This document shows, piece by piece, positions 9,821 to 29,547 of a DNA stretch of 64,000 nucleotides. Below the pieces are notes generated by a model. That model saw nothing but the letters and a program-made list of their open reading frames with translations, made no database searches and was not told the origin of the DNA. The translations under genes were made by a program, and so were the position numbers. Numbering within the stretch: position 1 is the stretch's first letter; every line of letters starts with the position of its first letter. Source of the DNA: an uncultured Actinomycetota bacterium (GTDB lineage: Bacteria; Actinomycetota; Actinomycetes; S36-B12; UBA5976); the NCBI GenBank assembly GCA_963784905.1, contig CAWATP010000009.1:54279-118278 (forward strand), read 5' to 3'.

Positions 9821-10348
9821 ATGGCAGTACCGATCGACTTGAACCGTGCGCAGCGTGCGCTGACACGGGGAGTCATCTATGTCCACGACGCAGGCAAAGC
9901 GTTCTGCAAACCTCTCGAATGGGCGCTTTCTGGCGTGCTCGATTACGAGGTGGCGCTGGATTGGACCCCACAGCCGATTACCCCAGGCCGCATGCGCGCC
10001 GAGTTTTCTTGGACAGGCCCCACCGGCAGTTCGGGCCGCATCGTCCATGCGCTCCACCAGTTGCCCGAGTTGCGCTTTGAAGTCACCGAGGAACCCACAG
10101 TCAGCAGTGAGGGTGAGCGATACGCGAGCACGCCGACACTCGGCATCTACCGCGCTCACATGAGCGTGCACGGCGACGTATTGATCAATGAACAGCGCAT
10201 CCGCACGCTGCTCTCTGAAGTCTCCGACATTGAAGAAATGCGGTCGTCGCTAGGGCTACTGCTTGGCACCGCCTGGGACGCCGAACTCGAGCCCTTCCGG
10301 CTTGCGGGCGAAGGCACTCCGGTCCGTTGGTTGCACCGCGTCGGCTGA
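9821..10348 (+). CDS. DUF3145 family protein
   Basis: TRGVIYVH, LRFEVTEEP and WDAELEPFR; usual neighbour of the actinobacterial fab operon. Confidence 0.85.
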   Translation: MAVPIDLNRAQRALTRGVIYVHDAGKAFCKPLEWALSGVLDYEVALDWTPQPITPGRMRAEFSWTGPTGSSGRIVHALHQLPELRFEVTEEPTVSSEGERYASTPTLGIYRAHMSVHGDVLINEQRIRTLLSEVSDIEEMRSSLGLLLGTAWDAELEPFRLAGEGTPVRWLHRVG

Positions 10349-13627: not shown

Positions 13628-14638
13628 TTAGGGGATGCGGATGACCTGCGCCGCATACGCGAGGCCGGCTCCGAAGCCGACCATGAGTGCGAGGTCGCCC
13701 GACTTGGCGAGTCCGTCGTTGACGAGCCCGTCAAGCGCGAGGGGGATTGACGCAGCCGACGTGTTGCCCGTCATGATGATGTCACGCGCAACCACGACGG
13801 TGTCGGGGAATTTCAGTCCGCGCACCAGGGCGTCTGTGATGCGATTGTTGGCTTGATGTGGCACGAACAATTGGATGTCATCGGCGGTAAGGCCAGCTGC
13901 TGCGAGTGCTTGGTGGCATACGCCGACCATGCTGCCGACAGCCCACTTGAAGACCTTCTGGCCTTCCATGCGCAATGTCGGCCAACGGAACTTGCCAGTG
14001 CTGTTGAACTCTTCACGCAGGTCGAGCCAGTTGGGTTCGACGACGATGGTGTTGAACTCGCTGCCATCCGCACCCCACACCGTCGGTCCAACACCCGGTG
14101 TATCCGCAGGGCCGAGGACAAAGGCGCCGGCGCCATCGGCGAAAATGAAGGCGGTGCCGCGATCGGCCGGGTCCGTCCAAGAAGAGAGCTTCTCGACTCC
14201 GACGACAAGCACATAGTCACTCTGTCCGGTGCTGATGATGCCGTCAGCCATACCCACGCCATACGGGAAACCGGCGCAGGCCGCCGAGACGTCGAAGGCT
14301 CCAGCATTGGTTGCCCCAATGCGGGCTGCCACAAGTACGGCCGCGCTTGGCGTTTGGTACGGGTGCGAAATGGTTGAGACGATGACCGTGCCCAGTTGCT
14401 TCGCACTAATACCGGCGTGAGCAAGTGCCTTAGTTGCAGCATCGCTGCCCATGTCAATGATGTCGACGTCATGTGGCGCCCAAAGCCGCTGCCTGATACC
14501 GGTGCGTTCCTGGATCCACTCATCTGATGAGTCGATGGGGCCGATGATTTCGGAGTTCGGTACAACGCGCTCGGCGCGATGCACGCCGAAACCGATGACC
14601 TCGCTGTAGCGGCGCGGGTTTGCCTTCATGGTGCTCAC
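13628..14638 (-). CDS. fabH: Beta-ketoacyl-ACP synthase III
   Basis: AACAGF, PHQAN, GNTSAASIP and GFGAGL motifs. Confidence 0.95.
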   Translation of the reverse strand: MSTMKANPRRYSEVIGFGVHRAERVVPNSEIIGPIDSSDEWIQERTGIRQRLWAPHDVDIIDMGSDAATKALAHAGISAKQLGTVIVSTISHPYQTPSAAVLVAARIGATNAGAFDVSAACAGFPYGVGMADGIISTGQSDYVLVVGVEKLSSWTDPADRGTAFIFADGAGAFVLGPADTPGVGPTVWGADGSEFNTIVVEPNWLDLREEFNSTGKFRWPTLRMEGQKVFKWAVGSMVGVCHQALAAAGLTADDIQLFVPHQANNRITDALVRGLKFPDTVVVARDIIMTGNTSAASIPLALDGLVNDGLAKSGDLALMVGFGAGLAYAAQVIRIP

Positions 14639-15828
14639 GCGTTGAGTTCCTCCGCGATCGGGTGGAGCCGGAGCAGTGGTTGACCGGGAGAGACCGGATC
14701 ACCGTCGGACACGAGCCATTCGACCACAGCACCGCCATATTCGGCGAACACCGGGGTTTCGTCATGGAGATGTACTACCGCTGCAACGACAGTCTGAGGC
14801 TCGAGCAGTACCCCTTCATCGAGACCTTCCATCACGCGCACCGTGCCCTTTGCGGGGCTGACAACGAGTCGCCATGCGGGTTGCGTCTGCAGCAAGTTCG
14901 ATTCACCGTGTTCCGCGACGAAGGTTCGAGCTGCATCGAGATCGTCGGGTGACTTGAGCGCAAACGTGGCAATACCCGGAAGAGCTCGCTTGATGAGTCC
15001 AGTGAGCGTGCCGGCTGGGGGGATCTCCAGGATGCCGGTTGCGCCGAGATCTGCGAAGGCCTGCATGCAGAGGTCCCATCGCACCGGGTTGGAAACTTGC
15101 GAAACGAGGCGCTTGAGAACTTCTTGGCCGCTGGAGAGCACCTGACCATCGGCATTGGAAAGCAGTGCCACGCGTGGGTCATGGGTCGAGATGGCGCGGG
15201 CGAGTTTGCCTAACTGCCGTGTGGCTGGCGACATATGCGAGGTATGGAATGCGCCGGCAACCGAGAGGGGGCGAACCTTGGCTTTGGCCGGCGGATCGGC
15301 CTCGAAAGCAGCCAACTGCTCGATGGTTCCCGCGGCCACAATTTGGCCGGCACCATTGTCGTTTGCGGCGGTGAGACCATGCTTGGCTATTGAGGAGAGC
15401 ACCTCCTCGCGTTCGCCGCCCAGTACCGCGGCCATACTCGTCTTGGTGATAGCCGCGGCTGATGCCATGGCCCGAGCGCGTTCACGGACGAACACCATGG
15501 CCTGTTCCGCTGTCAGAACACCGGTCGAAGCGGCCGCTGTAATTTCGCCGACGCTGTGGCCGGCGCCAGCGCCGAGGACGGCCCATCCATCCGAAGGATG
15601 CGGGAAGAGTTCAAGCAGCGATACAACTCCGGTCGCCACAATCAGCGGCTGGGCGACGGCGGTGTCGCGGATCGTGTCGGCGTCTGCCGCTGTGCCGTAC
15701 GCCCGCAGATCCATATCCGCGACGGTCGAAAGCCAGTCAAGTCGGTCACCAAAGTGGGGAAGCTCAAGCCACGGCGCCAGCATGCCTGGTGTCTGAGACC
15801 CCTGTCCGGGGGCGACGATGATGAGCAT
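14635..15828 (-). CDS. fabD: ACP S-malonyltransferase with C-terminal biotinyl/lipoyl-like domain
   Basis: PGQGSQ, GHSVGE, VAGAFHT and SNPVRW motifs. Confidence 0.93.
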   Translation of the reverse strand: MLIIVAPGQGSQTPGMLAPWLELPHFGDRLDWLSTVADMDLRAYGTAADADTIRDTAVAQPLIVATGVVSLLELFPHPSDGWAVLGAGAGHSVGEITAAASTGVLTAEQAMVFVRERARAMASAAAITKTSMAAVLGGEREEVLSSIAKHGLTAANDNGAGQIVAAGTIEQLAAFEADPPAKAKVRPLSVAGAFHTSHMSPATRQLGKLARAISTHDPRVALLSNADGQVLSSGQEVLKRLVSQVSNPVRWDLCMQAFADLGATGILEIPPAGTLTGLIKRALPGIATFALKSPDDLDAARTFVAEHGESNLLQTQPAWRLVVSPAKGTVRVMEGLDEGVLLEPQTVVAAVVHLHDETPVFAEYGGAVVEWLVSDGDPVSPGQPLLRLHPIAEELNA

Positions 15829-15863
15829 TCGGCAAGCCTGACGTGTTACCGCGGGGTCGCCAA
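15829..15863 (-). promoter_or_regulatory. Putative leaderless fabD promoter overlapping the att core
   Basis: Minus strand TTGGCG-17 nt-CAGGCT-6 nt-ATG; no Shine-Dalgarno sequence. Confidence 0.5.
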
Positions 15864-16133
15864 ATTGAACACGCCATCACCTTCAGGCGACGGCTCGACT
15901 CCATCCATCAACCAGGCCTCGTCAACGCCACAGGCGCGAGCAATAGCGCGCAAGAAGGGCACCTTGCGAGCGCGTGGCCAGTTGCGATTTTCGTATCCGG
16001 CCAACGTGGTACGAGAGATGCCAACGAGCTCGGCGACCTCTCGCTGTTCAAGTCCGGCGACAGTGCGCGCCAACACGATGCGTTCAGCAACCGTGAAGCG
16101 GGGAACCTCGCCTGTCAGTGCGTGAATACTCAT
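15846..16133 (-). CDS. XRE-family immunity repressor, prophage (truncated) form, 95 aa
   Basis: HTH LEQREVAELVGISRTTLAGYE...GVDEAWL; reads through the att core and stops at a TAA completed by host sequence. Confidence 0.9.
   Translation of the reverse strand: MSIHALTGEVPRFTVAERIVLARTVAGLEQREVAELVGISRTTLAGYENRNWPRARKVPFLRAIARACGVDEAWLMDGVEPSPEGDGVFNLATPR
15848..15865 (+). repeat. Left attachment site core ACCGCGGGGTCGCCAAAT
   Basis: Identical to 32579-32596. Confidence 0.95.
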
Positions 16134-16228
16134 GTGTTCAAGTTTGACCCTTAGAGCACAATTGCGCAACACGCCGAATGTGAACGTGGTTCTTGCATTT
16201 GTGCGGACTCTGGTCCTATCTTGAACCT
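16134..16228. promoter_or_regulatory. Divergent leaderless promoters for repressor and cro
   Basis: Plus strand TTGCAT-18-TATCTT-6-ATG; minus strand TTGCGC-17-CAAACT-7-ATG. Confidence 0.65.
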
Positions 16229-16411
16229 ATGTCCAATTCTTTGATGACGACCAGAGAAGCCTCCCAGGCACTTGGCGTCACCGTGAAGACCATCAACTCC
16301 CTGGCACGGGCGGGGCGCATCAAGACGGCCCACAAGGGCGCCGGGCGAACGTCCTCTCGCATGTTCCGCATTGAAGACATTGAGGACTTCAAGCGCGAGC
16401 GCGCTGCATGA
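16229..16411 (+). CDS. Cro/Xis-like small HTH protein (MerR/HTH_17 type)
   Basis: LMTTREASQALGVTVKTINSLARAGRI; divergent from the repressor; ends in -RAA. Confidence 0.85.
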   Translation: MSNSLMTTREASQALGVTVKTINSLARAGRIKTAHKGAGRTSSRMFRIEDIEDFKRERAA

Positions 16412-16473
16412 CCTCCGTCGGCCGCGTGCATTCCCCCGTCGCGTGGCCGGCGGACTTCCCTACACAAATGAAA

Positions 16474-16512
16474 GCCCGGCGCGGTTCCCTAACCAAGAAC
16501 CCCGCGCCGGGC
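16474..16512. terminator. GC-rich hairpin downstream of cro
   Basis: GCCCGGCGCGG ... CCGCGCCGGGC inverted repeat preceded by AAA. Confidence 0.45.
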
Positions 16513-16532
16513 ACCTACTGAAAGAAGGCGCA

Positions 16533-16664
16533 ATGACACTAGCAATCATCGTTGGACTTCTCGCCCTGGTGGCGTGGTCCTATATCCGCCGCGAACGCCG
16601 CCGCGCTACTGAGCGCCGCTCGCAGCTCGTCGCCCGCCTCAACATCGAGGAGGGTGCGCGATGA
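16533..16664 (+). CDS. Small viral membrane protein
   Basis: AAGAAGG RBS; single TM plus basic tail; ATGA coupling to the next gene. Confidence 0.7.
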   Translation: MTLAIIVGLLALVAWSYIRRERRRATERRSQLVARLNIEEGAR

Positions 16665-16924
16665 GCCAACGAGAGTCCGAGCTGCGCGACGCAGCCACCG
16701 CGGCCAAGTCCCGGATTAGCCAACTCCTGACCGATGCGCAGGGCAACCCTCCGCACCCGAGCCACCTCGACTACATCCTCATTCAAATTGCACTCTTCGG
16801 CGCGGAGTGCGCACCCAGGGCCAGCACCGCGGAAGCTACTTGCAAAGCCATCGTCGCCGAGGTCGATAGGGCCCTTGCACTGCGAGCAGACCAGGCAAGT
16901 GCAAGCGTGGTGAGGTTGGCATGA
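16661..16924 (+). CDS. Viral hypothetical protein
   Basis: GGAGG RBS; ATGA overlaps at both ends. Confidence 0.7.
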   Translation: MSQRESELRDAATAAKSRISQLLTDAQGNPPHPSHLDYILIQIALFGAECAPRASTAEATCKAIVAEVDRALALRADQASASVVRLA

Positions 16925-17142
16925 TTCCCCGTCACTGTGCTCTGTGTGGTTTGGTCGCCAACCGCAACACCAAGCCCTTCATCATCTTCATGACGCTGCG
17001 CGTCCTCGATGTCGATTTCATCGGCGCCTGCCGCGTACACATGGACCCGACGAACTCCCTAATTGGCAGAGAGCCAGACGTTGAGCTCGTGAAGACGTTC
17101 TTCGCCGCCGACTTCCGCGAGCCCTCCGTGGAGGTGCGCTGA
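16921..17142 (+). CDS. Viral hypothetical protein (CxxC)
   Basis: Coupled start/stop overlaps; GAGG RBS. Confidence 0.65.
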   Translation: MIPRHCALCGLVANRNTKPFIIFMTLRVLDVDFIGACRVHMDPTNSLIGREPDVELVKTFFAADFREPSVEVR

Positions 17143-17360
17143 TGACGTGGCTTGCATTGTTGGCTGGCCTGCTCTTCGGTGGGCTCACCGGCTGGGTGTG
17201 CGGGATGCTCACCATCTTCAAAGCCTTCGGGCACATCATCGACCTGGGCAAACGCCTCCTGGTCGCACAAGCTGCCGCCGGGGCGCCTTCCGGCGGCACG
17301 GTGGGGCTCGGGCGTCGGGAAGCGTCTGAGCCTCACCACGGCACCAAGGTCGGTGTCTGA
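17142..17360 (+). CDS. Small viral membrane protein
   Basis: GGAGG RBS; N-terminal TM; TGATG coupling. Confidence 0.7.
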   Translation: MTWLALLAGLLFGGLTGWVCGMLTIFKAFGHIIDLGKRLLVAQAAAGAPSGGTVGLGRREASEPHHGTKVGV

Positions 17361-17590
17361 TGGCACTTTCAGGACTCAAGCTCGGGCAGCGCGTTGCGTG
17401 GAACGGGCAGGCGTTCACGGTGTGGGCGAAGGCACCTGCCGCACGACAGTGGTGGCTGTATCAGCACCCGCAAGAGGGGGGGGGGCTCGCCCGGTTTCAT
17501 CTGTGCGAAACAGGGCGACCTGTTCCCGCCCACGCCTGCCGGTCTCGCCGCGTCCATCGAACGCTTGAACCCAGGGGCGTGAGCGTATGA
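17360..17590 (+). CDS. Viral hypothetical protein containing a G10 tract
   Basis: TGATG coupling; homopolymer at 17476-17485 may shift the C-terminal frame. Confidence 0.6.
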   Translation: MALSGLKLGQRVAWNGQAFTVWAKAPAARQWWLYQHPQEGGGLARFHLCETGRPVPAHACRSRRVHRTLEPRGVSV

Positions 17591-17886
17591 CCACGATCGA
17601 CTTCGAGCCTAAGCCCAACGAGACCGGGTACGACTACGCCAACCGGCTCATGATCATGACGGTGGGTTGCTTGGATTGCGAGCATGTGTGGAGCGGCAAG
17701 GGCGCTGACGTGGTGGCCATGTTCAACACGCACCAGACGCAACCGGGCAAGACCACGCACCGGCAGTGGCGGGAAGCGAACTGTCTTTGCGGTTGGCACT
17801 CAGGCAGCGAATACCACGAGCACGCCGTCGTGGTGCTGGCCACCATCGACCATCATTTGGCGATGCATGCGGGGTTGCTGCCATGA
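17587..17886 (+). CDS. Viral Cys/His-rich (putative Zn-binding) protein
   Basis: CLDC, H..H and CLCGW motifs; coupled ORF. Confidence 0.65.
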   Translation: MTTIDFEPKPNETGYDYANRLMIMTVGCLDCEHVWSGKGADVVAMFNTHQTQPGKTTHRQWREANCLCGWHSGSEYHEHAVVVLATIDHHLAMHAGLLP

Positions 17887-18278
17887 GCACACAACTCACC
17901 ATCGAGGCCATCGACCAGGTGATCGAGGCCGGCCACGCACACGCCAACAGCGAGTGGCGCCGTGTCGCCCTGGAGTCGGTGCGCCTGCTGTCTAACACCC
18001 GCGAATTCTTCACCACTGACGAAGTGTGGGAACTGTTGGAGCCGACCGGCTTCACGACCTCGGACCCGCGCGCCCTGGGTGGTGTGATGCGTGCAGCTCG
18101 CGCCGCCGGCTACATCAAGCCGACGCTGGACATGAAGAAGAGCCAACGCCCCGGATGCCACTACCGGCCCATCACCATCTGGATATCACTCCGCGCATCC
18201 GTGCTCCCCCGTTCCGCCAACCGCGGGCACATGGTCGTCAATGTTGACAACATCCCCCGAGAGGCGTACGTCGCATGA
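17883..18278 (+). CDS. Viral putative winged-helix DNA-binding protein
   Basis: FTTDEVWELL...DPRALGGVMRAARAAGYIK...S.RP..H.RP...W pattern that I recall from phage proteins. Confidence 0.6.
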   Translation: MSTQLTIEAIDQVIEAGHAHANSEWRRVALESVRLLSNTREFFTTDEVWELLEPTGFTTSDPRALGGVMRAARAAGYIKPTLDMKKSQRPGCHYRPITIWISLRASVLPRSANRGHMVVNVDNIPREAYVA

Positions 18279-18487
18279 AACTCGTCATCAACGTGAAGCC
18301 TGAGCGCGGCGCTTGGCACTGGGACGTCATCGACCTCGACCAGAAGCGGGCCTACTCCTACGGCATGAATCCGCACTTCGGTGTTGCTTCCACTCGTTGG
18401 GGCGCGATATGGGGCGCGCGCCGTCGCGCCCGTTGGATGAAGCGCGTGGCAGACACCACAGTGGAACGCATCGAGGTGAAGCCATGA
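18275..18487 (+). CDS. Viral hypothetical protein
   Basis: ATGA coupling; GAGG RBS. Confidence 0.65.
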   Translation: MKLVINVKPERGAWHWDVIDLDQKRAYSYGMNPHFGVASTRWGAIWGARRRARWMKRVADTTVERIEVKP

Positions 18488-18594
18488 AGACCGTGCTTGA
18501 TGCCCGTGACGCGAAGGTGTGCCACTGCCCTGGCTGCGGCAATTGGCTCTACGACGGCGCGGCCTGCACTGTCTGCCCAGGGGGTGCGAAGTGA
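18484..18594 (+). CDS. Tiny zinc-ribbon protein (36 aa)
   Basis: CPGC...CTVC; GAGGTG RBS; ATGA and GTGA coupling. Confidence 0.55.
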   Translation: MKTVLDARDAKVCHCPGCGNWLYDGAACTVCPGGAK

Positions 18595-18866
18595 CGCCCG
18601 GCGAGGGACTCGGCCATTGTGCGCCGTGCGTCGAGCGCACTGTGCAGCCCTATCGCAAGTCGGTGAAGCCCAAGGATTGCGGTTACTGCCAGACCTACCA
18701 GGCGGGCATCGTTGAGGGCTGGATGCGCGCCTCTGATGCGGTCACCGAAATCGACTTCGGGCGCGCCGAAACGCTCGGGGTGCAACGGTTCCGCGCGGTG
18801 CTGCGTAACGCACTCCTGGCCAACGCAAAGCTCCACGTTGCCCTGGTCGTGGCCGATGATCGTTGA
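18591..18866 (+). CDS. Viral zinc-finger protein
   Basis: CAPC...CGYC; GTGA coupling. Confidence 0.55.
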   Translation: MTPGEGLGHCAPCVERTVQPYRKSVKPKDCGYCQTYQAGIVEGWMRASDAVTEIDFGRAETLGVQRFRAVLRNALLANAKLHVALVVADDR

Positions 18867-19143
18867 ACGCTGTGCCCGTCACGCTTTCAAGCCCTCCCGT
18901 CACGCCTGCAGCGAATGCCGGGACGCTTTTGAGGCGGCGCGTGACGCGTTGATCGAGCGCAACTATCGTGAGCTCGACGCGCGGTACGAACTGCACCGCC
19001 AACGCACGCTTGCAACGGCCATGTGCAACCTTTGTGACGACAACGCACGCCGGCCCGATGGCCGCCTGTGCCACCATGACCCCGACCATGATGAACGAGT
19101 CGCCCGCGGTGTTGCCGCGTGCCGAGAGGCGTTGGCGTCGTGA
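18856..19143 (+). CDS. Zn-finger protein resembling the C-terminal domain of actinophage replication proteins
   Basis: C..H...CSEC and CNLCDDN...CHHD motifs. Confidence 0.55.
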   Translation: MIVERCARHAFKPSRHACSECRDAFEAARDALIERNYRELDARYELHRQRTLATAMCNLCDDNARRPDGRLCHHDPDHDERVARGVAACREALAS

Positions 19144-19499
19144 GAACACGGAACTTCGTGAAACTCCCGATCATGATTTTCGAAGACACCCGCGCCATCA
19201 GGGCCGGTGAGCAAGCCATGCATCTGTGGGTGTCGATGTGGTCGCGCAGCTTCACGATGGAATCTGACGGATGTTGGGAAGACGTCCAGGTGAGTCGGCT
19301 CAACGTGCCCAATTGGGACAAGCGGCTCGATGCGCTCATCGAGCAAAAGTTGGTGGCGCAGGTGAGTGACGGCGTCTTCCAGCTCATTGATTGGCTGCTG
19401 TACCACGAGTCGGTGAAGGAACGCGGTGCGCGCCTGGAGAAGGAGCGTGAGCGCAAGCGCCTCGCAGCATTGCAAAAGGAGAAGAAACACAGCGCCTAA
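19140..19499 (+). CDS. Putative replication initiator (phage replisome-organiser N-terminal-like wHTH)
   Basis: FVKL...A..LW...DG...L...L...DG.F...DW..Y.S followed by a RERKR helix. Confidence 0.6.
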   Translation: MRTRNFVKLPIMIFEDTRAIRAGEQAMHLWVSMWSRSFTMESDGCWEDVQVSRLNVPNWDKRLDALIEQKLVAQVSDGVFQLIDWLLYHESVKERGARLEKERERKRLAALQKEKKHSA

Positions 19500-19640
19500 C
19501 GCTTTCCGCGCGGAAAGCGCGCGGAAGCCCCCCGGAATCCTGACGGAGTCCGGGGGGCTTCCTTTTGGAAGACGTTCACCCTTCCTCGCGGAAGCCGAGC
19601 GGATGCCGCGCGCAGATAGAGAGATAGAGAGAGAGAAATG
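19500..19640. other. Candidate replication origin
   Basis: 20-bp perfect palindrome 19500-19519; (C/T)GGA cores at 19511, 19522, 19533, 19544, 19566, 19589 and 19600; 14-bp-stem hairpin 19523-19562; purine run 19614-19638. Confidence 0.55.
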
Positions 19641-19809
19641 CTCCGCGCCGCGCCCCCGCGTGGCCGCGGTGAATCGCGGCGCGTCGCAGCGGGCGCGATT
19701 CAGCGCGGGCGCGTCGTGGCGTGCGTCTGCGAGGTGAATTTGATGGGGTGAAAGAGGTTCGGCCCCTGGAGGCTGGAGCTTTCCAGGGGCCGAAGGTGTG
19801 CGGGTTCGC

Positions 19810-20058
19810 CTACTCGGGGTCGAAGCCCAGGGCGTGCACGGCGTCGGCCTGCCGCTCGATGGTCTTGCGCACGATGATGCGATGCACCAACGACGGGTGC
19901 AGATCGGTGGCCCTGGCGATGTAGCGCATGCCCAGGCCTTCGGCGTCCGCGTCAGCAATAGCCTCGTCACGCACCGCCAGGGCGGCATCGACGTGGGCGT
20001 GTGCCTCACGAGCTGCGGCAGCGAGCCGGGCGAGCCGTTCACGCATGAAATCCGCCAC
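19810..20058 (-). CDS. Small HTH transcriptional regulator
   Basis: RDEAIADADAEGLGMRYIARATDLHPSLVHRII; GAAGGGA RBS before GTG. Confidence 0.75.
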   Translation of the reverse strand: MADFMRERLARLAAAAREAHAHVDAALAVRDEAIADADAEGLGMRYIARATDLHPSLVHRIIVRKTIERQADAVHALGFDPE

Positions 20059-20179
20059 GGAAATCCCTTCGTTGTGAGGAAACCCTAGCAGAAAGATGAC
20101 ACTTTCCTCATGTTGTGGGGTATGGTGTTCACATCCGCAATCCGCGCGGTGTTCACCACAGTCAACAGGGAGACGGGTT

Positions 20180-20629
20180 ATGGGCCTCGCAGTTCGCGGC
20201 ACCTGCCCCAAGTGCCAACGGGTCTATGACACCGAGGCACCAGCCCGCCGCTCGACTCGCCGTTTCACCTGCGCCACCGACGGCTGTGACGGCGACGTCC
20301 TGGCCCGCCGCATCAAAGGCAACGACCCCGCACCGGCGCCCCTGGCTGCTGAACCCAACCCCGCCGGCCGACGACGAAAGAAGGCACTCCGTGTCGATGG
20401 ATACGCCCGACAGCCCCGACACTCTGAGCCCGGACCAAGCCCCGAGCTTCCTGGTGGCGTTGCCGAACCTGGCACCCAAACGCCCCCACCGCCCCCTGGA
20501 CGAGACCCCGAACCTGCCCCCGTCGTCGAACCCCGACAGCCCCACGGTGAGCCCGCCGCCGAGCGACCTCGACGACGAGCCGAGCGAGTACGACGAGCCG
20601 GCGTCACCCCGTACGACGACCTCTACTAG
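20180..20629 (+). CDS. Zn-ribbon protein with Pro/Arg-rich tail
   Basis: GGGAG RBS; CPKC...CATDGC; overlaps the next ORF. Confidence 0.55.
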   Translation: MGLAVRGTCPKCQRVYDTEAPARRSTRRFTCATDGCDGDVLARRIKGNDPAPAPLAAEPNPAGRRRKKALRVDGYARQPRHSEPGPSPELPGGVAEPGTQTPPPPPGRDPEPAPVVEPRQPHGEPAAERPRRRAERVRRAGVTPYDDLY

Positions 20630-20948
20630 GCGCAAGCCCGGCGGTGACCCGCGTGAGGTTGCCATGGTCCTGGGCGGCCTCCTGGTGCTGCTCACCGGCA
20701 CCCTGGCGTTGCTCGCCAACCAACGCGGCCGCACCTTCCGGCAACCCACCATTCGGCAACGTGATGACATCGCCCAACCGTTGGCACGGATCGCGGTGCG
20801 GCATCTGCCGCTTGATGCCCTGGGCCCCGACCTGGCTGACGCCACCATGGCCGCCGTCGCCCTCCACGCCTACGTCATGGCCGGGCCCCTCACCCCACCG
20901 ATCAGCGCCGACAGCCCTGCCGGCGACTTCAACAACCACCAGGAGTAA
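20391..20948 (+). CDS. Viral membrane protein with acidic Pro-rich N-terminus (possible assembly factor)
   Basis: AAGAAGG RBS; two hydrophobic segments; ends just before the RBS of the next gene. Confidence 0.65.
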   Translation: MSMDTPDSPDTLSPDQAPSFLVALPNLAPKRPHRPLDETPNLPPSSNPDSPTVSPPPSDLDDEPSEYDEPASPRTTTSTRRKPGGDPREVAMVLGGLLVLLTGTLALLANQRGRTFRQPTIRQRDDIAQPLARIAVRHLPLDALGPDLADATMAAVALHAYVMAGPLTPPISADSPAGDFNNHQE

Positions 20949-20952
20949 ACCC

Positions 20953-21342
20953 ATGCTCGACAAGCTCCGCGCCCTGTTCGATGGCAAGACCACCACGCGC
21001 CTCGTGCTCGCCGGAGTTGCCATCGTCTGGGGCATTCAGACCATCACCGACACCATCCGCGACATGGAAGCCCACGCCGACGAGCTCGCCGAACTCATCG
21101 CCCTGCGTGAGCTGACCCTGGCCTCGCTCGACGTCGAGCTGCGAAACGTTGACGGCGTGCAGTTCACGTTCTCCGGTATCAGTGACGACACCCACCCGGC
21201 AGGTCAGGGCCGCACCGTGCCGCCGTCGCCATTCATCAACCACGACACCCATGACATCGACGTCACGGACAACGACGAGTCGGTGGCCGAGTTCAATGCC
21301 ACCCGAGGCAACACCGCCGGCGCAAACGGGCTTGTGCCATGA
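20953..21342 (+). CDS. Viral membrane-anchored coiled-coil protein
   Basis: AGGAG RBS; TM segment then an acidic helix. Confidence 0.7.
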   Translation: MLDKLRALFDGKTTTRLVLAGVAIVWGIQTITDTIRDMEAHADELAELIALRELTLASLDVELRNVDGVQFTFSGISDDTHPAGQGRTVPPSPFINHDTHDIDVTDNDESVAEFNATRGNTAGANGLVP

Positions 21343-21821
21343 CCGGCACACCCAACCCGTCGCGGGTCATCTTTCGCGGCTTCAAGTTCGACCGCCGCAC
21401 TGTCGCCATGATCGAGTGGGCCGAACGTAAAGCCGGCTTCAAGTTCGTCATCACCCAAGGCTCCTACTCGACCGGCGTGAGGGTGTCCGGTGGCACCCAC
21501 AACGGTGGTGGCGCCGCCGACTTCTCCGTGCGCAACCTCTCCCGCGCCAGCATCGACAAGATGGTGCATGCGCTGCGTGACGCCGGTTTCGCCGCCTGGC
21601 ACCGGCGCGAAATCCCTGGCACCTGGCCCGAGCACTGTCACGCCATCGCCATCGGCTGCCCCGACCTGGCTACTGCCGCTCGAGCCCAGGTCTTGGACTT
21701 CGAGCGCGGGCATGACGGGCTCAAGCAATCACGACCCGACAACACCTACCGGCCCAAGCCCGCGGTCATCTTCGACATGAAGACCTGCAAGCCCATTCAC
21801 CGACTGACGTTTAAGGACTGA
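21339..21821 (+). CDS. Endolysin, Zn-peptidase (M15-like) catalytic domain
   Basis: ITQGSY...SGGTHNGGGAAD...AAWHR...EHCH (Hx6D and HxH ligands) as in actinophage lysin A domains. Confidence 0.8.
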   Translation: MTGTPNPSRVIFRGFKFDRRTVAMIEWAERKAGFKFVITQGSYSTGVRVSGGTHNGGGAADFSVRNLSRASIDKMVHALRDAGFAAWHRREIPGTWPEHCHAIAIGCPDLATAARAQVLDFERGHDGLKQSRPDNTYRPKPAVIFDMKTCKPIHRLTFKD

Positions 21822-21822
21822 T

Positions 21823-22047
21823 ATGAACCGCACCCAACTCGCGGCCGCGGCCAAGAGCTACGGCAAGACCCTCATCATCGCCTGCGCCCTCCTGGCCAAG
21901 GCCGGCGTCACCGACTGGCCCACCTACGCCCTGGCCGTGCTACTCGCCGTGCTCGCGCCTGCCGGCCGCTACCTCGACCCCAACGACCCCACCGTTGGCC
22001 GCGCGCGTGCCGCCGTCACCGAAGCCCAGGCCGCAACCACGCCATGA
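21823..22047 (+). CDS. Putative holin
   Basis: 74 aa, two TMs, RYLDPNDP tail; directly after the endolysin. Confidence 0.7.
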   Translation: MNRTQLAAAAKSYGKTLIIACALLAKAGVTDWPTYALAVLLAVLAPAGRYLDPNDPTVGRARAAVTEAQAATTP

Positions 22048-22808
22048 TCGTTTCCGGCAGCTTCAAGGAAGACGGCTCCATCGACTGGGGTGACGGCAAG
22101 GTCATTGACTGTTTCGGGCAGAAGGGCACCGGCAAGTCGGTCATGGCCAAGTTCGTGGCCGCCACCTATCCCGGTGACCGCATCGTCATCGACGTCGCCG
22201 GCGACGACGGCCCCATGGGCGAAGGCGTCATCGAGCTGCGCGGCGACGCCTCCACGCTGCCCTGGTCGTGGCCGGAGAGCGAACGCAAAGACGGCGAATA
22301 CATGACGGTGCGCTACGTGCCGGACCCCGGCTCGCCGACGTTCCTAGAAGACATGGACGCCGTAGTCGGGCTGGCACTGCGCCACGCCCTCGACCAGTTC
22401 CACAAGGGCCGCCACGGTGCCCTGCTGCTGGTGCACGAAATCGGTGTCGTGGCACCGGAAAACAAGACCCAACCGAACATGATGCGCGCCCTCATGCACA
22501 ACCGTCACAACAGGCTCACCATGGTCATGTGTGGGCCGCGCGCCATGCGCATCAACCCGTTGGTGCGCAGCCAGGCCGACATCATCTACGTGTTTCGCCT
22601 GGCCAACCTCGATGATCGCAAGAAGCTCGCCGAAGCCATCGGGTGGTCCGCCACCGACTTCGCCGAAGAAGTCGACGCCATCAAGGAACAACACGCCTAC
22701 CTGCGCATCGACCTCAAGGAACAGTCCGGGGACGACGCCGAATTCGATCACCGGCTCGTGCACCTGCCGCCGCTGCCGGCCGACGTCGTGAAAGAAGTCA
22801 TGGCATGA
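22044..22808 (+). CDS. FtsK/HerA-superfamily genome-packaging ATPase (P9/A32-like)
   Basis: 254 aa; Walker A GQKGTGKS, IVID strand, Walker B LLLVHE, NRH arginine finger and SQAD...F. Confidence 0.82.
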   Translation: MIVSGSFKEDGSIDWGDGKVIDCFGQKGTGKSVMAKFVAATYPGDRIVIDVAGDDGPMGEGVIELRGDASTLPWSWPESERKDGEYMTVRYVPDPGSPTFLEDMDAVVGLALRHALDQFHKGRHGALLLVHEIGVVAPENKTQPNMMRALMHNRHNRLTMVMCGPRAMRINPLVRSQADIIYVFRLANLDDRKKLAEAIGWSATDFAEEVDAIKEQHAYLRIDLKEQSGDDAEFDHRLVHLPPLPADVVKEVMA

Positions 22809-23002
22809 ACCGCGTACGCGCCTTCCTGACGCCCGAGGGGCACCCTGTCACCGAAATCGAGGGCGCCGGCATCGTCAACGTGTTCTCCGGTGACGGCGTC
22901 ATCGAACTCATCGCCGATTTGCGGACCGCTTGGACTGACGACTTCATGGACGCGGTGCTTGTTTGGAAACTGCGCGAAATCGCCAGAGAGGTCATGACAT
23001 GA
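22805..23002 (+). CDS. Viral hypothetical protein
   Basis: ATGA coupling at both ends. Confidence 0.6.
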   Translation: MNRVRAFLTPEGHPVTEIEGAGIVNVFSGDGVIELIADLRTAWTDDFMDAVLVWKLREIAREVMT

Positions 23003-23319
23003 GCTGCGAACACAATGCCGCGATCATCCACCGTGCCGACGCTGTGTCGCGTTTCCTCGCCACTTGCCCCGACTGCACATCGGTGGCGTCGGTGGGCTTC
23101 CATGAGGTCATGACCCCGATCCTGGGCTGGGACGGGTTCGTTCAAGTCGTCAAGGCGCGACTGTCACAAAACGACGTCACCAGAGCCACGGAGACGCCCG
23201 AACAGGAACCGGCTGGGGCGGTTGATACCGGAGATCGCTCGCACGTCTCAAATTGCGTCTGTGGGCGTTGCGTCGGCGAACGTCGCCGAGTCCGCGGTCT
23301 CGGCCCTCTACCAAACTAA
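22999..23319 (+). CDS. Viral Cys-rich protein
   Basis: CPDC and CVCGRC; coupled ORF. Confidence 0.6.
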   Translation: MSCEHNAAIIHRADAVSRFLATCPDCTSVASVGFHEVMTPILGWDGFVQVVKARLSQNDVTRATETPEQEPAGAVDTGDRSHVSNCVCGRCVGERRRVRGLGPLPN

Positions 23320-23330
23320 GGAGCCAAATC

Positions 23331-23555
23331 ATGGCTAAGAAGCGTTCCCACAACCTGCTGCGCAAGGCCCCCGTGGTGTTGCACGCGTGCCCCGAGTGCC
23401 CGATGCACCAGCCGCGCCCGTTTTGCTCGACCTGCCACGGTCGCGGCCTGCTCACCGAGCTGCAGCTGCGGATCTGGAACAGCAAGCGCATGCTCGACGA
23501 CAACGGCATGGCCAGCGTAGTGAGCAGCGAGTCGCCGCTCGATGAGCTGCTCTAG
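23331..23555 (+). CDS. Small zinc-finger protein (CxxC...CxxCxGxG)
   Basis: AAGGAG RBS; CPEC...CSTCHGRG; stop overlaps the convergent gene. Confidence 0.65.
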   Translation: MAKKRSHNLLRKAPVVLHACPECPMHQPRPFCSTCHGRGLLTELQLRIWNSKRMLDDNGMASVVSSESPLDELL

Positions 23556-24127
23556 TTGTAGGTGGCTTGCAACGCCGACACGTAAAGCTGTTGCGCGCCG
23601 CCCTCCGCGGGCGTGTTCACCTTGAGCTGCAGCGCGGTGGTCGGTGCCACCGTGTTCAGTTGCGCGGTCTTCACGCCGTTGATGGTGTAGGTGGTCTTCC
23701 CGTTGGCGGCGATGTCAATGATGAACGGGATCCACGTGGAGCCTGGCACCGTGCCGGCCGACGTGTACCCGGCGCCGTTGTAGACGGTCACCGCGCCGGA
23801 GCCGTTCATGGCAATGGTGATGCGCGACGAGCCGCCATCAATGCTGATGGAGTCGCCGACGCTCGGCGCCCAGGTCGCACCGATCCAGAAGAAGCCGGTG
23901 ATGGTGACGCCGTTGAATGACGTTCGTCCGGGGCTGAGCGCGGGAATGAGCGGCCACGTGCAGGAGGCGCCGTTGGCGGCGCATGCGATACTGGGGCGCA
24001 TGCCGGCGCTGCTGTAAGTGCCGGTGCCCAGGGTCGGTGGGAACTTTTCACCGCTGATGCACTGCCAGGCGAAATAGTCCACGCCCTCGATGAGCGCGGA
24101 CAGGGTGGCTGGGTTCGAGAACGGCAT
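23552..24127 (-). CDS. Beta-sandwich virion protein (ConA-like; candidate spike/receptor-binding)
   Basis: G/T/S-rich all-beta pattern; last gene of the structural operon. Confidence 0.55.
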   Translation of the reverse strand: MPFSNPATLSALIEGVDYFAWQCISGEKFPPTLGTGTYSSAGMRPSIACAANGASCTWPLIPALSPGRTSFNGVTITGFFWIGATWAPSVGDSISIDGGSSRITIAMNGSGAVTVYNGAGYTSAGTVPGSTWIPFIIDIAANGKTTYTINGVKTAQLNTVAPTTALQLKVNTPAEGGAQQLYVSALQATYN

Positions 24128-24131
24128 GAGC

Positions 24132-24476
24132 TCACCCGCTCGGCGTGAACATGCCGGCAATGCGGATGCCGGCGGTGGCGCCTGGAGTGGCCCCGGACCA
24201 GACGGCGATGATGGTGTCATCGCCACCCATGTGATACACGGTGTTGCTCGTGTCACCGTCGCCGCTCTTGGTCGAGTCCTGTTGGTTGAGCTGCGCCACG
24301 CTGTCGCGATAGATCCGGCACACCGGGTTGCGGGCGGTGTTGCCCGACAAGCTCACCGACGTGGTGTCGATGTCGTAGGTGCCGGCAGGGCCGGGCGTCA
24401 GGCTGATGCTGGCGGTGCCGTCGGCGGCCACGGTCGCGGTCTGTGCTTTCTTCCAGGGGCGTGCAATAGGTGCCAC
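24132..24476 (-). CDS. Small all-beta virion protein (candidate single jelly-roll penton)
   Basis: 114 aa from GTG; alternating beta-strand pattern; size similar to tectiviral pentons. Confidence 0.45.
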   Translation of the reverse strand: MAPIARPWKKAQTATVAADGTASISLTPGPAGTYDIDTTSVSLSGNTARNPVCRIYRDSVAQLNQQDSTKSGDGDTSNTVYHMGGDDTIIAVWSGATPGATAGIRIAGMFTPSG

Positions 24477-24480
24477 GGCG

Positions 24481-24627
24481 TCACCAGGGGAGGAACGGGC
24501 CGAAGATGGCCGGCTTCTTGCGGCCGTGCCCGTCGTACGCGTCATGCAGCACAACGAACCCCGACACAACCAGGACGAGACCCACGATCACGCCTGTGCG
24601 CGAGCTCGCGATGAGTGGACGCTTCAC
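24481..24627 (-). CDS. Small membrane protein (48 aa)
   Basis: Read by hand: MKRPLIASSRTGVIVGLVLVVSGFVVLHDAYDGHGRKKPAIFGPFLPW; GTGA coupling. Confidence 0.6.
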   Translation of the reverse strand: MKRPLIASSRTGVIVGLVLVVSGFVVLHDAYDGHGRKKPAIFGPFLPW

Positions 24628-24836
24628 GGCATGCCTTTCACATCGGCGATGAACTTGCCCTTGGCGTCGATCTCGCCGTCAGCCAGGGCGCCGTCATCCC
24701 ACGCGAAGTAGCAATCGGCGATGTTGTCGCCGGGGCCGGCCAGACTGCCGTCACCCTTGACGATCGCCGGCTCCCCGAGGGCAACACCGTTGACCTTCTT
24801 CGGACTGTTCTGAATCTTCGATCGGACCTTGCCCAT
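24624..24836 (-). CDS. Viral hypothetical protein (70 aa)
   Basis: TAATG coupling to the upstream gene. Confidence 0.6.
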   Translation of the reverse strand: MGKVRSKIQNSPKKVNGVALGEPAIVKGDGSLAGPGDNIADCYFAWDDGALADGEIDAKGKFIADVKGMP

Positions 24837-26242
24837 TACTGGTACCACCTCTGCATTTCGTTGGCTATGGCCGCAAACTCCGTCGCGGTGAGTCGGAACC
24901 GGAACAGTGCCGCCTGGAAGAACTCCATGTCCGCGAAGTAAGAACCCGACGAACGAGAGCCGACGCGCAGTGTGTCGCCGTTAGCGAGACTTCCAACGGT
25001 GGTGTCGGTAGTTCCCAAACTTATAGTCGCACCTGATGCCCAATACAGCTTGTCCGTCCCGGTGTCGCGCATGCCGGCCCAAACGCCAAGTGAACCGGAT
25101 GCTTCCGCCGCGGCTGAATAGGTCAGCGAAGTGTTGGTGCCGTCGGCAACCAAGAAAAGCGGGACGTTGTTAGTTGTTTCCGTTTCGAGCGACCATCCGG
25201 CGCCGGCCCCGGCTCGCTTCGTAAGCATTTTCGCGTAGGAAGTCGGAGTTGCCCAACGCCTGGCTACGAAGACGATCGTGAACGGATCGGCGGCCGCGAA
25301 GTCCAGCAGCACATTGTCACCGACCTCCAGGAAGTCATCGGCGCCGAAGAGCAGGCATGACCGTACGACTGCGACGGCTTTTCTTCCCGAGAGTGCTCGT
25401 GAAATGAGCACGCCCTGCCCCGTCAATGCCGTGAACGAGGTTGCCGCCCCCGTAGTGATCACCGAGGTGTCAACATCCAGCACAGTGGGCCCATCAATGC
25501 CGTTAAGAATCTGCGTCCTGTAGTCCTTGCCAGCGAATGCTCTAGCGCCCCAACCGTAGGCCCCGATGACGATCTTGTTGGTGCCGTTGAATATTGACGT
25601 TGCGCCGACGCCTGTAACCGTCGCTCCGAGCTGGACCCAAGCGACTCCGTCGAAGGAATAGAGGAACGTCAGACTCCAACCACCGGCGCCGTTGTCAACG
25701 TCCAGATTGCACCGAAGGTAGACGGCGGTACCGGCGGCAAAGGGGACTGGAATGGTTGAGATAGCGAGGCGACTTGAGGCGTTTGTGCCCAGTGGCGCCC
25801 AGGTGAACTGAAGTGTTCCGTTGGTGTTGATTGCGAACACGTAGGAGAGATTGCCGTCAGATTCCCACTTTGAAAGGAGCAATTGCTGGGCGCTGGGATT
25901 CCAACTCTCGGCCGCCACGAAACGTCGGAGGTCGATGTCTGAGGTGATGTTGAAATCGGGCGTGCTTGTGACTTGCATATTGTTGCCATCAACGCCGGGC
26001 AGGTAGATGTAGGGCCGCCCGTCGAATCGCAATTGCTTTGGGTCGTTGGTGTCAGGTGACGGGCCGGAGCCCACCTGCGCATCGAGCGCCTGGCCGCCCC
26101 AGCCGAGATTGGTGATCCGTTGGGATCCCGCAGACGGGTGGCCGGCGTCGATCCACCAGACGGCCTGCTTCAGCAGGTTGTCCACTCCGAGGTTGCCGAC
26201 GCACCGGGCGCCGCCGCCGGCACCGATGGGACCTCCGGGCAT
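24836..26242 (-). CDS. LamG/concanavalin-A-like multidomain protein, candidate receptor-binding spike (468 aa)
   Basis: TAATG-coupled start MPGGPIG; two LamG-like units (DIDLR..W..LLSKW; FTIVFVAR...LRVG...ALFRFRLT..E). Confidence 0.7.
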   Translation of the reverse strand: MPGGPIGAGGGARCVGNLGVDNLLKQAVWWIDAGHPSAGSQRITNLGWGGQALDAQVGSGPSPDTNDPKQLRFDGRPYIYLPGVDGNNMQVTSTPDFNITSDIDLRRFVAAESWNPSAQQLLLSKWESDGNLSYVFAINTNGTLQFTWAPLGTNASSRLAISTIPVPFAAGTAVYLRCNLDVDNGAGGWSLTFLYSFDGVAWVQLGATVTGVGATSIFNGTNKIVIGAYGWGARAFAGKDYRTQILNGIDGPTVLDVDTSVITTGAATSFTALTGQGVLISRALSGRKAVAVVRSCLLFGADDFLEVGDNVLLDFAAADPFTIVFVARRWATPTSYAKMLTKRAGAGAGWSLETETTNNVPLFLVADGTNTSLTYSAAAEASGSLGVWAGMRDTGTDKLYWASGATISLGTTDTTVGSLANGDTLRVGSRSSGSYFADMEFFQAALFRFRLTATEFAAIANEMQRWYQ

Positions 26243-26733
26243 TACCTCACCCCGAACGGCGTCATGTCGGTGAAGGCCTGGATACCGACGGATGTCCCCG
26301 CGGTGCCATAGACGGTGAAGGCGTGCGAACCGATAGGGATGGCCAGCCAAGAGTTGTTGGGGATGATCTGCACGCCGTTGCCCTGGGTGGGTGCGACGCC
26401 GCTGGGCTGGGTGCCGGTTTGCACGGTCATGGTGGCGCCGGTGGTGTTGGTGATGACCACGGCCCCGACCTGCGTGTGGTACGAGCACACGAGCACACCG
26501 TCGGCGGGGATGACGCGGGCAACGACTTCGAGCACATTGTTGCTCAGTTGCGAGCGATCGCGTGCGGCCATGCCCGACATGACCGTGGAGAGACGCTTGA
26601 GCTCGTCCAGGGTGGCTTCGGCGACGGCGCGAGCGAGCTCACGGTCGGTGAGTGGGCGAGAGGGCAGGTCGCCGGTGGTGGGGCCTTCGTTGCGCGCAGC
26701 GATTTGACTGTTGCCGGTGTTCATGAGTCCCAT
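26242..26733 (-). CDS. Virion protein with N-terminal helix and beta-rich C-terminus (candidate vertex protein)
   Basis: AGGA RBS; position in the structural operon. Confidence 0.55.
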   Translation of the reverse strand: MGLMNTGNSQIAARNEGPTTGDLPSRPLTDRELARAVAEATLDELKRLSTVMSGMAARDRSQLSNNVLEVVARVIPADGVLVCSYHTQVGAVVITNTTGATMTVQTGTQPSGVAPTQGNGVQIIPNNSWLAIPIGSHAFTVYGTAGTSVGIQAFTDMTPFGVR

Positions 26734-26741
26734 GCTGGTTC

Positions 26742-26918
26742 CTATCCGAGTCCGTTGGCTTTGAGGTAGTAGGCGACGGCGGAGACGCCGACACCGATGA
26801 CGGCGAGCTCGACGCGGCGCAGGCGCCGTTCGTGGTCGGTGAAGGTGATGAAGAAGGTGTCGACCTTCGTGGCGATGGTGATGAGGATGTCGTGGTCACT
26901 GCTGAATTCCGGTGGCAT
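26742..26918 (-). CDS. Small coiled-coil plus TM protein (XhlA/holin-like)
   Basis: TGATG coupling; KVD...DHERRLRRVE followed by a TM. Confidence 0.6.
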   Translation of the reverse strand: MPPEFSSDHDILITIATKVDTFFITFTDHERRLRRVELAVIGVGVSAVAYYLKANGLG

Positions 26919-27676: not shown

Positions 27677-27684
27677 GGCTCAGC

Positions 27685-28188
27685 TCACAGGTTCCGCATG
27701 AGGAAGCCGGCCTTGGCAGGCGAGAGCGGCACACCGGCTTTGAGGGCGAGGGCGGTGTCGTTGGCAATGCTCGCGGCCGACGGCTGCGCCGCCGCATTCG
27801 CAAGCTGTTGCATGACGTAGGACTGGGGCTTGGCTGCCGGTGTCGGTGCGACGCCAGACGGCGGGACCGCGGTGGCGGTGGTGGGTGCTGCAGCGCCGCC
27901 CTGGGCGATGCCGGCGAGGATCTGCGAAATGCTCGACAGTTGCGACGTGTAGGCGTCCAGGGCGGTGGTGTCGGCCGCGGTGCCGCCAGCTGCGCCGGCG
28001 CCGCCACTGCTGCCGGCATAGAGCCCGCCAAGGCTGCCGTTGCTGCCCGTGGTGTCGGTGGCAGTGCTCACGGAGCCGCCGCTCGAGCCCTTGCGGACGA
28101 ACACGACCAGCCCGATGACCGCACCCACGGCGGCCGCGGCCTGGGCGCGCTTGTCGCGCATGAGACCCGACAGGCTCTTGGTGTTCAT
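27685..28188 (-). CDS. Membrane-anchored low-complexity virion protein
   Basis: ATGA coupling; N-terminal TM then G/S/A/T-rich region. Confidence 0.7.
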   Translation of the reverse strand: MNTKSLSGLMRDKRAQAAAAVGAVIGLVVFVRKGSSGGSVSTATDTTGSNGSLGGLYAGSSGGAGAAGGTAADTTALDAYTSQLSSISQILAGIAQGGAAAPTTATAVPPSGVAPTPAAKPQSYVMQQLANAAAQPSAASIANDTALALKAGVPLSPAKAGFLMRNL

Positions 28189-28607: not shown

Positions 28608-28608
28608 G

Positions 28609-28758: not shown

Positions 28759-28781
28759 GTGGGTTGCTCCCTTGAGTGGTG

Positions 28782-29544: not shown

Positions 29545-29547
29545 GGG

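Follow-up and report, generated by a model that had tools for sequence, protein, structure and literature searches.

Is integration itself the lysis/lysogeny switch in a virus that is not a tailed phage? This question is raised by a 64,000-nucleotide stretch of DNA from an uncultured Actinomycetota bacterium (assembly GCA_963784905.1, contig CAWATP010000009.1, positions 54,279 to 118,278 of the forward strand), referred to here as the window, which carries an integrated element of 16.7 kb whose repressor gene runs across one of the element ends. A first reading of the DNA, made from the letters alone (the sequence-only reading), had proposed that the viral attachment site, attP, lies inside this repressor gene and that integration removes an ssrA-like degradation tag from the repressor. 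We found the coordinates, the repeated core, the stop codons and the continued reading frame behind that proposal to be correct, and joining the element ends in silico and translating across the joint gave a repressor of 95 amino acids (aa) in the prophage and of 115 aa in the excised circle. We consider it likely that the element represents a temperate virus, tailless and PRD1-like, with a small-genome actinobacterium as its host, that it integrated itself by means of its own tyrosine integrase, and that it carries a three-gene integration-dependent immunity cassette which works as set out below. What we observed directly are the attachment (att) sites, an empty site, the two repressor forms, tag-like protein termini, homology to known systems and recurrence in relatives.

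The element is inserted at a conserved site upstream of fabD

The integrated element extends from core to core over positions 15848-32596, as delimited by direct repeats and by empty sites in related genomes. Its 18-bp core, ACCGCGGGGTCGCCAAAT, is an exact direct repeat with only two copies in the window, the attL common core at 15848-15865 and the attR common core at 32579-32596, which are identical to each other at 18 of 18 positions. With two mismatches allowed, two matches to the core were obtained in none of 100 dinucleotide-preserving shuffles, and the core is the sole exact repeat of at least 14 nucleotides (nt) between the 10-kb regions around the two element ends. The circle produced by joining these ends is 16,731 bp long.

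We compared the insertion site with the corresponding region of other species of the genus. On the left, the element is flanked by a fabD-like acyltransferase gene (14635-15828, minus strand; Pfam Acyl_transf_1, 7e-19) whose start codon lies 20 nt from attL and whose relatives have 72-75% DNA identity, and on the right by the gene of a 462-aa membrane protein (32654-34042, minus strand). The site is empty in two of the four other same-genus species searched (G003 and G002), where a 42%-identical homologue of the membrane protein directly adjoins fabD with the core-like sequence GGTTACCGGGGGGTCGCCAAAT between them. In a third congener (G001), the next host gene, not a homologue of the 462-aa protein, adjoins fabD. 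The attL core resembles GGTTACCGGGGGGTCGCCAAAT, which is kept upstream of fabD in four same-genus genomes. Since the congeners show either the membrane-protein homologue or the next gene adjoining fabD without the element, the 16.7-kb segment is inserted DNA, placed at a conserved site a short way upstream of fabD. The host itself is represented by a metagenome-assembled genome (MAG) of 1.82 Mb that is 76% complete.

Integration has also changed the surroundings of fabD. The DNA natively upstream of this gene now lies 16.7 kb away, and the repressor gene, which shares its strand with fabD, has its stop codon 17 nt from where fabD begins; for these two reasons the repressor promoter may now drive the fatty-acid synthesis operon.

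The repressor has a prophage form and a longer viral form

The minus-strand repressor gene (rep; 15846-16133) begins with ATG at 16133, reads through the left core as ...FNLATPR and stops at a TAA (15846-15848) that is formed at the junction of core and host, its T being the last base of the core and its AA being host DNA. The resulting 95-aa protein contains an HTH (helix-turn-helix) domain (Pfam HTH_31, 4e-10; HTH_3, 6e-9) and matches the 'transcriptional repressor' family phrog_2328 at 2e-19. At the right end of the element the same frame runs on as SPAAVILPFRTPRHEYSLSA to a stop at 32517-32519, so that the in-silico join adds a viral-only tail of 20 aa (32517-32578, minus strand) and yields a 115-aa form ending in EYSLSA. 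The claim that attP lies inside the repressor gene was thereby confirmed, the core being read as ..NLATPR near the 3' end of the rep open reading frame (ORF). A 20-codon open extension is by itself not significant in DNA of 62% G+C; what gives the two-form finding its weight is the C-terminal motif, together with homology and with recurrence among relatives.

The repressor tail had been said to resemble an ssrA ending, and this held when it was set against tags of the genus. The transfer-messenger RNA (tmRNA) tags in three same-genus genomes end in DFALAA or LALAA, and that of a family member ends in DFALAA; EYSLSA and DFALAA have in common the pattern acidic, aromatic, small, Leu, small, Ala, which is a resemblance only. 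Among 688 long host ORFs with high G+C content at third codon positions, which we used as a baseline, the terminus is Ala in 17%, Ala-Ala in 1.5% and [LIV][AS]A in 0.9% (6/688). The viral repressor and the integrase of the element both fit the last of these patterns. The host MAG contains clpP1-clpP2-clpX.

The integrase gene (int) lies at the opposite end of the prophage (31653-32444, minus strand, GTG start at 32444) and encodes a 263-aa tyrosine integrase (Pfam Phage_integrase, 2e-16; phrog_1, 6e-39) in whose sequence the catalytic motif residues R, K, HxxR, H and Y are visible. It ends in NLIAA, which is tag-like by sequence resemblance only and had escaped the sequence-only reading. In the circle, int starts 72 nt downstream of the stop codon of the viral-form repressor and on the same strand, in agreement with the earlier proposal that rep is directly upstream of and co-oriented with int.

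A small gene diverges from rep (16229-16411, plus strand) and encodes a 60-aa HTH protein that is cro-like or excisionase-like (Pfam HTH_17, 9e-10; excisionase/regulator families of PHROGs). It occupies the same position as cluster G gp34, Brujita gp35, which is annotated as 'putative excisionase', and Wizard gene 48. The 95-nt spacer between rep and this gene (16134-16228) is assigned as the control region by position only, and divergent promoters and an operator are presumed to lie there. The sequence GTGTTCAA has three copies in the window, two of which, at 15865-15872 and 16134-16141, flank rep in inverted orientation, and a palindrome, GAACGTGGTTC, is found in the spacer at 16182-16192. 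The GTGTTCAA copies and the palindrome are candidate operator half-sites.

The cassette is homologous to integration-dependent immunity systems of tailed phages

The sequence-only reading had likened the layout to that of mycobacteriophages BPs and Brujita, and homology bears this out, with the repressor related to those of cluster G, Brujita and Gordonia cluster DC phages and the integrase to theirs and to those of other tailed actinophages. When the repressor was compared with 50,697 phage records, 96 matched, including 59 from Gordonia, 14 from Mycobacterium and 11 from Arthrobacter phages. The best matches are the immunity repressors of Gordonia cluster DC phages (Wizard/Twister6), with 43% identity over 86 aa. 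Identity is 38% over 78 aa to gp33 of Avrafan, a cluster G phage (E 9e-11), and 32% over 72 aa to Brujita gp34 (E 8e-8). The integrase matched 421 phage records, of which 407 are from Mycobacterium (291) or Gordonia (116) phages and which include cluster G gene 32 and Brujita gene 33. We take these matches to include phages of clusters P, N and CW as well.

Integration-dependent immunity has been defined by an attP within rep, tagged repressor and integrase proteins, and a set of three genes (available passages of PMC3694055 and PMC4557955); passages of the former describe the system as lacking xis, and according to passages of the latter, the switch is found in clusters G, I, N and P. Phages of clusters CW and DC have likewise been named for it (PMC5559632). 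Among the defining features of the BPs/Brujita/Charlie-type system, whose three-gene cassette takes up approximately 2 kb, the element shows attP in rep, a shorter repressor in the prophage, the cassette layout, tag-like repressor and integrase termini, and homology.

The likeness to BPs and cluster G (gp32 integrase, gp33 repressor, gp34 Cro) extends to gene order, with rep, the attP inside it and int on one strand and a small divergent HTH gene, and to the C-termini of repressor and integrase, which are tagged in that cluster and tag-like by resemblance in the element. The prophage form of the repressor is the shorter one in both, at 103 versus 136 aa in BPs and 95 versus 115 aa in the element; gp33 of Avrafan is, at 136 aa, as long as BPs gp33 is reported to be. 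There are differences too. The element is a tailless virus of 16.7 kb and not a 41-kb siphovirus, its repressor tail ends in LSA where those of cluster G end in KAS, its integrase is approximately 34% identical to that of cluster G and has 263 aa in contrast to the 398 aa annotated for Avrafan, and, unlike in BPs and cluster G, its attB lies between genes, upstream of fabD.

Brujita (cluster I1) has the same cassette order (gp33 integrase, gp34 repressor, gp35); its repressor tail carries APVIPL and ends in NEHAA, and its integrase ends in LSAA. Brujita is a tailed phage whose tail peptide includes a tRNA-type core (ESNPRP), whereas the att core of the element is not tRNA-derived. The order in Wizard is also like that of the element, with an HTH gene, a rep of 123 aa ending in EPAAA and a 295-aa tyrosine integrase ending in NSAA. 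Gordonia, Arthrobacter and Bifidobacterium phages for which integration-dependent immunity has been predicted differ from the element in that all are Caudoviricetes and most sit at tRNA genes; for the Bifidobacterium prophages the switch was predicted by an equivalent in-silico joining of ends.

The element is a PRD1-type tailless virus

That the carrier belongs to a different realm from the tailed phages had been part of the initial proposal, and its major capsid protein (MCP) bears this out. The 393-aa MCP (30056-31237, minus strand) narrowly misses the cut-off of the Pfam family for the N-terminal domain of PRD1 P3. A profile built from 44 homologues matched, among solved structures in the PDB, PRD1 P3 at 7e-7 and the STIV coat protein at 3e-6. 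Its AlphaFold2 model has a pLDDT (predicted local distance difference test) of 88 and a pTM (predicted template-modelling score) of 0.88, and a Foldseek search with this model returned P3 of PR772/PRD1 (E 2e-19, TM 0.72 across the entire model), with STIV, PBCV-1 and PM2 capsid proteins as the next matches. Among isolated phages, the best matches are tectiviruses of Bacillus and Lysinibacillus, at 23-28% identity. Since the profile and the predicted structure make the MCP a double jelly-roll (DJR) protein of the PRD1 type, we assign the element to the tectivirus-like viruses of the Bam35-Toil kind.

Further genes fit a virus of this kind. A putative packaging ATPase of 254 aa (22044-22808, plus strand; phrog_2666, 3e-14; Pfam Zot/AAA below cut-off) is kept beside the MCP in relatives, a 252-aa protein has a lysozyme domain (26918-27676, minus strand; Pfam Phage_lysozyme2, 2e-28), and the element has many small membrane-like ORFs. 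The only element ORF of more than 400 aa (24836-26488) matches no Pfam family. We found no match to a family B DNA polymerase among the 21 element ORFs scanned with Pfam and/or PHROGs, which leaves out the shortest ORFs. The sole hint of replication is a 113-aa ORF (19158-19499) that weakly matches phage replication-initiation families (phrog_2447, 2e-6).

The element thus has the P3-type DJR capsid protein of the Tectiviridae and shows neither of two other family traits: no protein-primed family B polymerase was seen among the ORFs scanned, and, in place of a linear genome with inverted terminal repeats or a linear episome, it is integrated between direct repeats. Like Bam35, Toil and WheeHeim/Forthebois, it combines a PRD1-type MCP, a packaging ATPase and lytic enzymes with a genome in the range of approximately 15-18 kb and a Gram-positive or actinobacterial host; unlike them, it has no recognised protein-primed polymerase and was integrated by a tyrosine integrase. 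Most Bam35/Toil-like prophages are described as linear episomes without recombinases in passages of Yutin et al. 2018 (PMC5894146). The word integrase does not occur in the WheeHeim/Forthebois paper, in which the mechanism of lysogeny is left open (PMC6950372).

We considered whether the segment is an integrative conjugative element of an actinomycete and rejected this, since it encodes capsid protein, packaging ATPase and lysozyme, and no conjugation genes were seen among the ORFs scanned. Another view is that the element is a decaying, non-inducible remnant in which the two-form repressor has lost its function. The source genome is metagenome-assembled, no reads across an excision junction were obtained, and the ORFs scanned include no recognised DNA polymerase and only a weak match to replication initiators, all of which would suit a remnant. 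The two cores, however, are still identical, the genes for repressor, tail, integrase, MCP, ATPase and lysozyme are all open, and the length of 16.7 kb is near that of related prophages (approximately 14.7 to 16.5 kb), if somewhat below that of many viral contigs of 17.3-18.8 kb. We therefore regard decay as very improbable.

Separately, we noted three tandem copies of a 12-nt unit, CCGCGGGGATGT, at 29748-29790 inside a small ORF (29548-29802), which encode the repeated ADIP peptide PADIPADIPAADIP.

The repressor layout recurs in related viruses and prophages

We next asked whether the layout is kept among relatives of the element. In a protein collection the MCP has 98 homologues, and many of these lie on 16-19 kb contigs. 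Searching JGI metagenomes with a profile gave 203 relatives, often on contigs of 17.3-18.8 kb; 80 of the 203 were retained (L026-L105). Alignment-based scans of viral and genome contigs found relatives where scans with the single MCP sequence found none. Three IMG/VR contigs (L023-L025) are too distant to inform. That the sizes of the relatives cluster at 17.3-18.8 kb suggests that these contigs are complete genomes of an uncultured virus family; seven related contigs, four to five of them whole, showed neither terminal overlap nor inverted terminal repeats. In a sample of the class from GTDB, the MCP was found in four of 401 genomes, including that of the window, and the other three (G110, G189 and G211) have no integrase of this type nearby. 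One of these, an uncultured Actinomycetota MAG, contains two related DJR elements with capsid genes 15.9 kb apart, apparently in tandem (G189:C3; L138/L141, L112-L114), with no integrase of this type nearby.

Because tblastn with the repressor of the window matched none of 83 metagenome/viral loci, we located the repressors of relatives by their position upstream of int. Twelve of the 83 loci bear int; in three of these int is cut by the contig end and in two there is no HTH ORF, leaving seven usable loci. In all seven (L028, L032, L033, L039, L042, L062 and L075), the ORF just upstream of int matches a Pfam HTH family at E <= 0.01, in five cases above the curated cut-off. These ORFs end in LIAA (L028), RQVA (L032), AAAG (L033), PLAA (L039), VRVA (L042), VIGA (L062) and GVAA (L075). 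Segments resembling a tRNA 3' half, as att cores usually do, lie inside the HTH ORF in three of the seven: L033 (38 nt, 92% to tRNA-Asn), L032 (27 nt) and L075 (two segments). The two segments in L075 are approximately 300 nt apart (reverse complement ~9980-10000 and ~10280-10300), one inside the rep ORF and one between rep and int, and this spacing suggests two alternative att cores.

When one genome was scanned for each species, 27 actinobacterial loci were obtained, 13 of them with int, and five of these could be resolved as prophages. They are found in a Marmoricola MAG (L142; 35-bp repeat at tRNA-Lys, 15,903 bp), Nocardioides soli DSM 105498 (L139; 39-bp repeat at tRNA-Asn, 15,917 bp), Actinotalea lenta SYSU T00b441 (L133; 35-bp repeat at tRNA-Lys, 16,451 bp), an Actinomycetota MAG (L130; 35-bp repeat with two mismatches, approximately 14,690 bp, no tRNA gene called in the locus) and a Cellulomonas sp. 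(L131; 36-bp repeat with four mismatches, at tRNA-Asn). In all five independent prophages, rep is at one end and int at the other, and rep crosses attL and stops at the core or a few codons beyond it. Joining the ends lengthens the five repressors by 12 to 37 aa and gives the termini RTAS, RRAS, ECVA, AAAAA and TVSA.

Conservation of the tail in relatives had been set beforehand as a check, which the proposal withstood; the two terminal patterns reported here were chosen after the data were seen. Across the 13 family repressors, ten end in Ala (host baseline 17%), and all 13 have A, S, V or G as their last two residues (host baseline 14%). The two -AS endings are not exceptions, since gp33 of Avrafan ends in DKAS and the change A135E is reported to stabilise gp33 of BPs (available passages of PMC4557955). 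We weighed these termini against the view that the attP-in-rep arrangement is real and the tail is no degron, in which case the arrangement would be a by-product of a compact genome whose core overlaps the end of a regulator, and lysogeny would be decided otherwise. This view can draw on the open extension expected by chance in high-G+C DNA, on termini that vary (LSA, TAS, RAS, CVA, AAG), on the frequency with which host ORFs end in Ala anyway and on the lack of a detected promoter. Against it speak the uniformly small terminal residues of the family and the same kind of terminus on the integrase, and the repressor is homologous to BPs-type gp33 and to Brujita gp34, for which the tag has reportedly been shown by mutation (passages of PMC4557955). 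The layout is also kept at different att sites, namely upstream of fabD, at tRNA-Asn and at tRNA-Lys. We judge it improbable that the tail is a mere by-product.

The viral-only tail contains a conserved internal motif

Besides its terminus, the tail shares an internal motif with known systems. The motif A-x-V-I/L-P/x-L...R precedes the C-terminus by 16-26 residues in the four sequences measured for it (the window, Avrafan, Brujita and Wizard), and takes the form PAAVILPFR in the window (AAVILPFR within the 20-aa tail), NADVLPGPW in Avrafan, DAPVIPLRQ in Brujita, SSQVIPLPG in Wizard and A[DQE]VI[DS]L..R in four DJR prophages. The loci concerned are window 32517-32578, L154, L155, L022, L130, L131, L133 and L139, and the motif is upstream of the terminal tag. 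At third codon positions the copies are not the same, and their distance from the core ranges from 5 to 44 nt. Both features favour peptide-level selection on the motif and indicate, from the comparison of these sequences, that the tail of the repressor is translated. The motif could alternatively be a DNA-level integrase site. No mention of it was found in the passages, abstracts or titles of the literature surveyed.

The motif raises the possibility that the tail acts mainly through it, by adaptor binding, oligomerisation or auto-inhibition, and that proteolysis from the terminal tag is secondary. Its presence in tailed phages and DJR prophages alike, with varying synonymous codons and varying distance from the core, would fit such a role. 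The sample is small, however, and the motif could reflect a DNA site bound by integrase; moreover, in the available passages of PMC4557955, the short and long forms of the BPs repressor bind DNA similarly and A135E, a change of a single residue in the terminal region, stabilises the 136-aa long form. A leading role for the internal motif therefore seems unlikely to us.

Proposed mechanism of integration-dependent immunity

Taken as an integration-dependent switch, the cassette would work as follows. In the circle, one leftward transcript would give the 115-aa repressor and the 263-aa integrase, both with ssrA-like ends (EYSLSA and NLIAA). Host ClpXP is expected to degrade both tagged proteins, and for this reason lytic growth would be the default. 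Integrase that survives long enough would recombine attP with attB and cut rep at the core, and the stop codon at the new junction would leave a stable, tagless repressor of 95 aa that silences the rightward lytic promoter and confers immunity. Integration would also part int from the rep promoter. Given the homology and the architecture, a BPs-like mode of working is the most likely one; the parts of it that we infer are proteolysis, a short form that is active, and the promoters and operator.

Several observations weigh against this reading. Some concern the tag: the viral repressor ends in LSA and not in the canonical LAA, one relative (L033) ends in AAAG, and no tmRNA was found by Rfam or aragorn in the host MAG, of which 76% is present, which is why the tag comparison was made with congeners. 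Others concern the control of the cassette. A consensus scan of 15700-16500 returned no sigma-70-type promoter and no terminator, and the divergent gene has the excisionase-type HTH_17 fold even though the system is described as lacking xis, an objection tempered by the annotation of the Brujita gene at the equivalent position. The cassette is not universal, since this type of int occurs in 12 of 83 viral/metagenome loci and in 13 of 27 genome loci, many of which are fragments; L024 and L052 have no recognisable HTH ORF upstream of int, and of the 13 genome loci with int, eight (L117, L123, L125, L127, L134, L135, L136 and L143) were not resolved. A search of sequencing runs listed a single match, a sediment metagenome, and no RNA run; the Logan contigs of this metagenome, which contain 0.34 of the words, gave only short pieces and no joint at either att site, attP or attB. 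That the 115-aa form is unstable, that the 95-aa form acts as a repressor and that the two govern the choice between lysis and lysogeny is inferred from the comparisons above and not from experiment.

Implications for tectivirus-like viruses

The switch itself is already known, and what appears to be new is its occurrence in a non-tailed DJR virus, which we did not find in print. In the literature on integration-dependent immunity, titles and abstract openings name only tailed phages and no tailless or DJR virus. A survey for work linking tectiviruses, DJR viruses or Varidnaviria to ssrA, to an integration-dependent switch or to a tyrosine integrase with attP yielded nothing relevant; it was judged mostly by title, and the supplements of PMC5559632 and PMC5894146 were outside its scope.

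Integration-dependent immunity has been presented as a minimal and possibly ancestral lysis/lysogeny switch, so far described only in tailed actinobacteriophages. A homologous cassette in PRD1-like viruses would make it a module that is independent of virion type and moves between viral realms, and the logic of truncation at attL is kept at several attachment sites in these viruses. It also offers a mechanism of lysogeny for a branch of the tectivirus-like viruses, the temperate biology of actinobacterial tectiviruses being unexplained in the available part of PMC6950372.

A broader view, for and against which we see the chances as evenly balanced, is that a large uncultured family of actinobacterial tectivirus-like viruses (approximately 15-19 kb) is integrative and that many of its members use a switch gained by cross-realm module exchange with tailed actinophages. 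The repressor tail would then combine a small-residue degron with an undescribed motif shared across realms, and this motif would perhaps bind an adaptor or the integrase. The finding points to this conserved tail motif and to cultured lysogens for experiments: if the broader view is true, the switch of a non-tailed virus could be studied in two natural lysogens, Nocardioides soli DSM 105498 and Actinotalea lenta SYSU T00b441.

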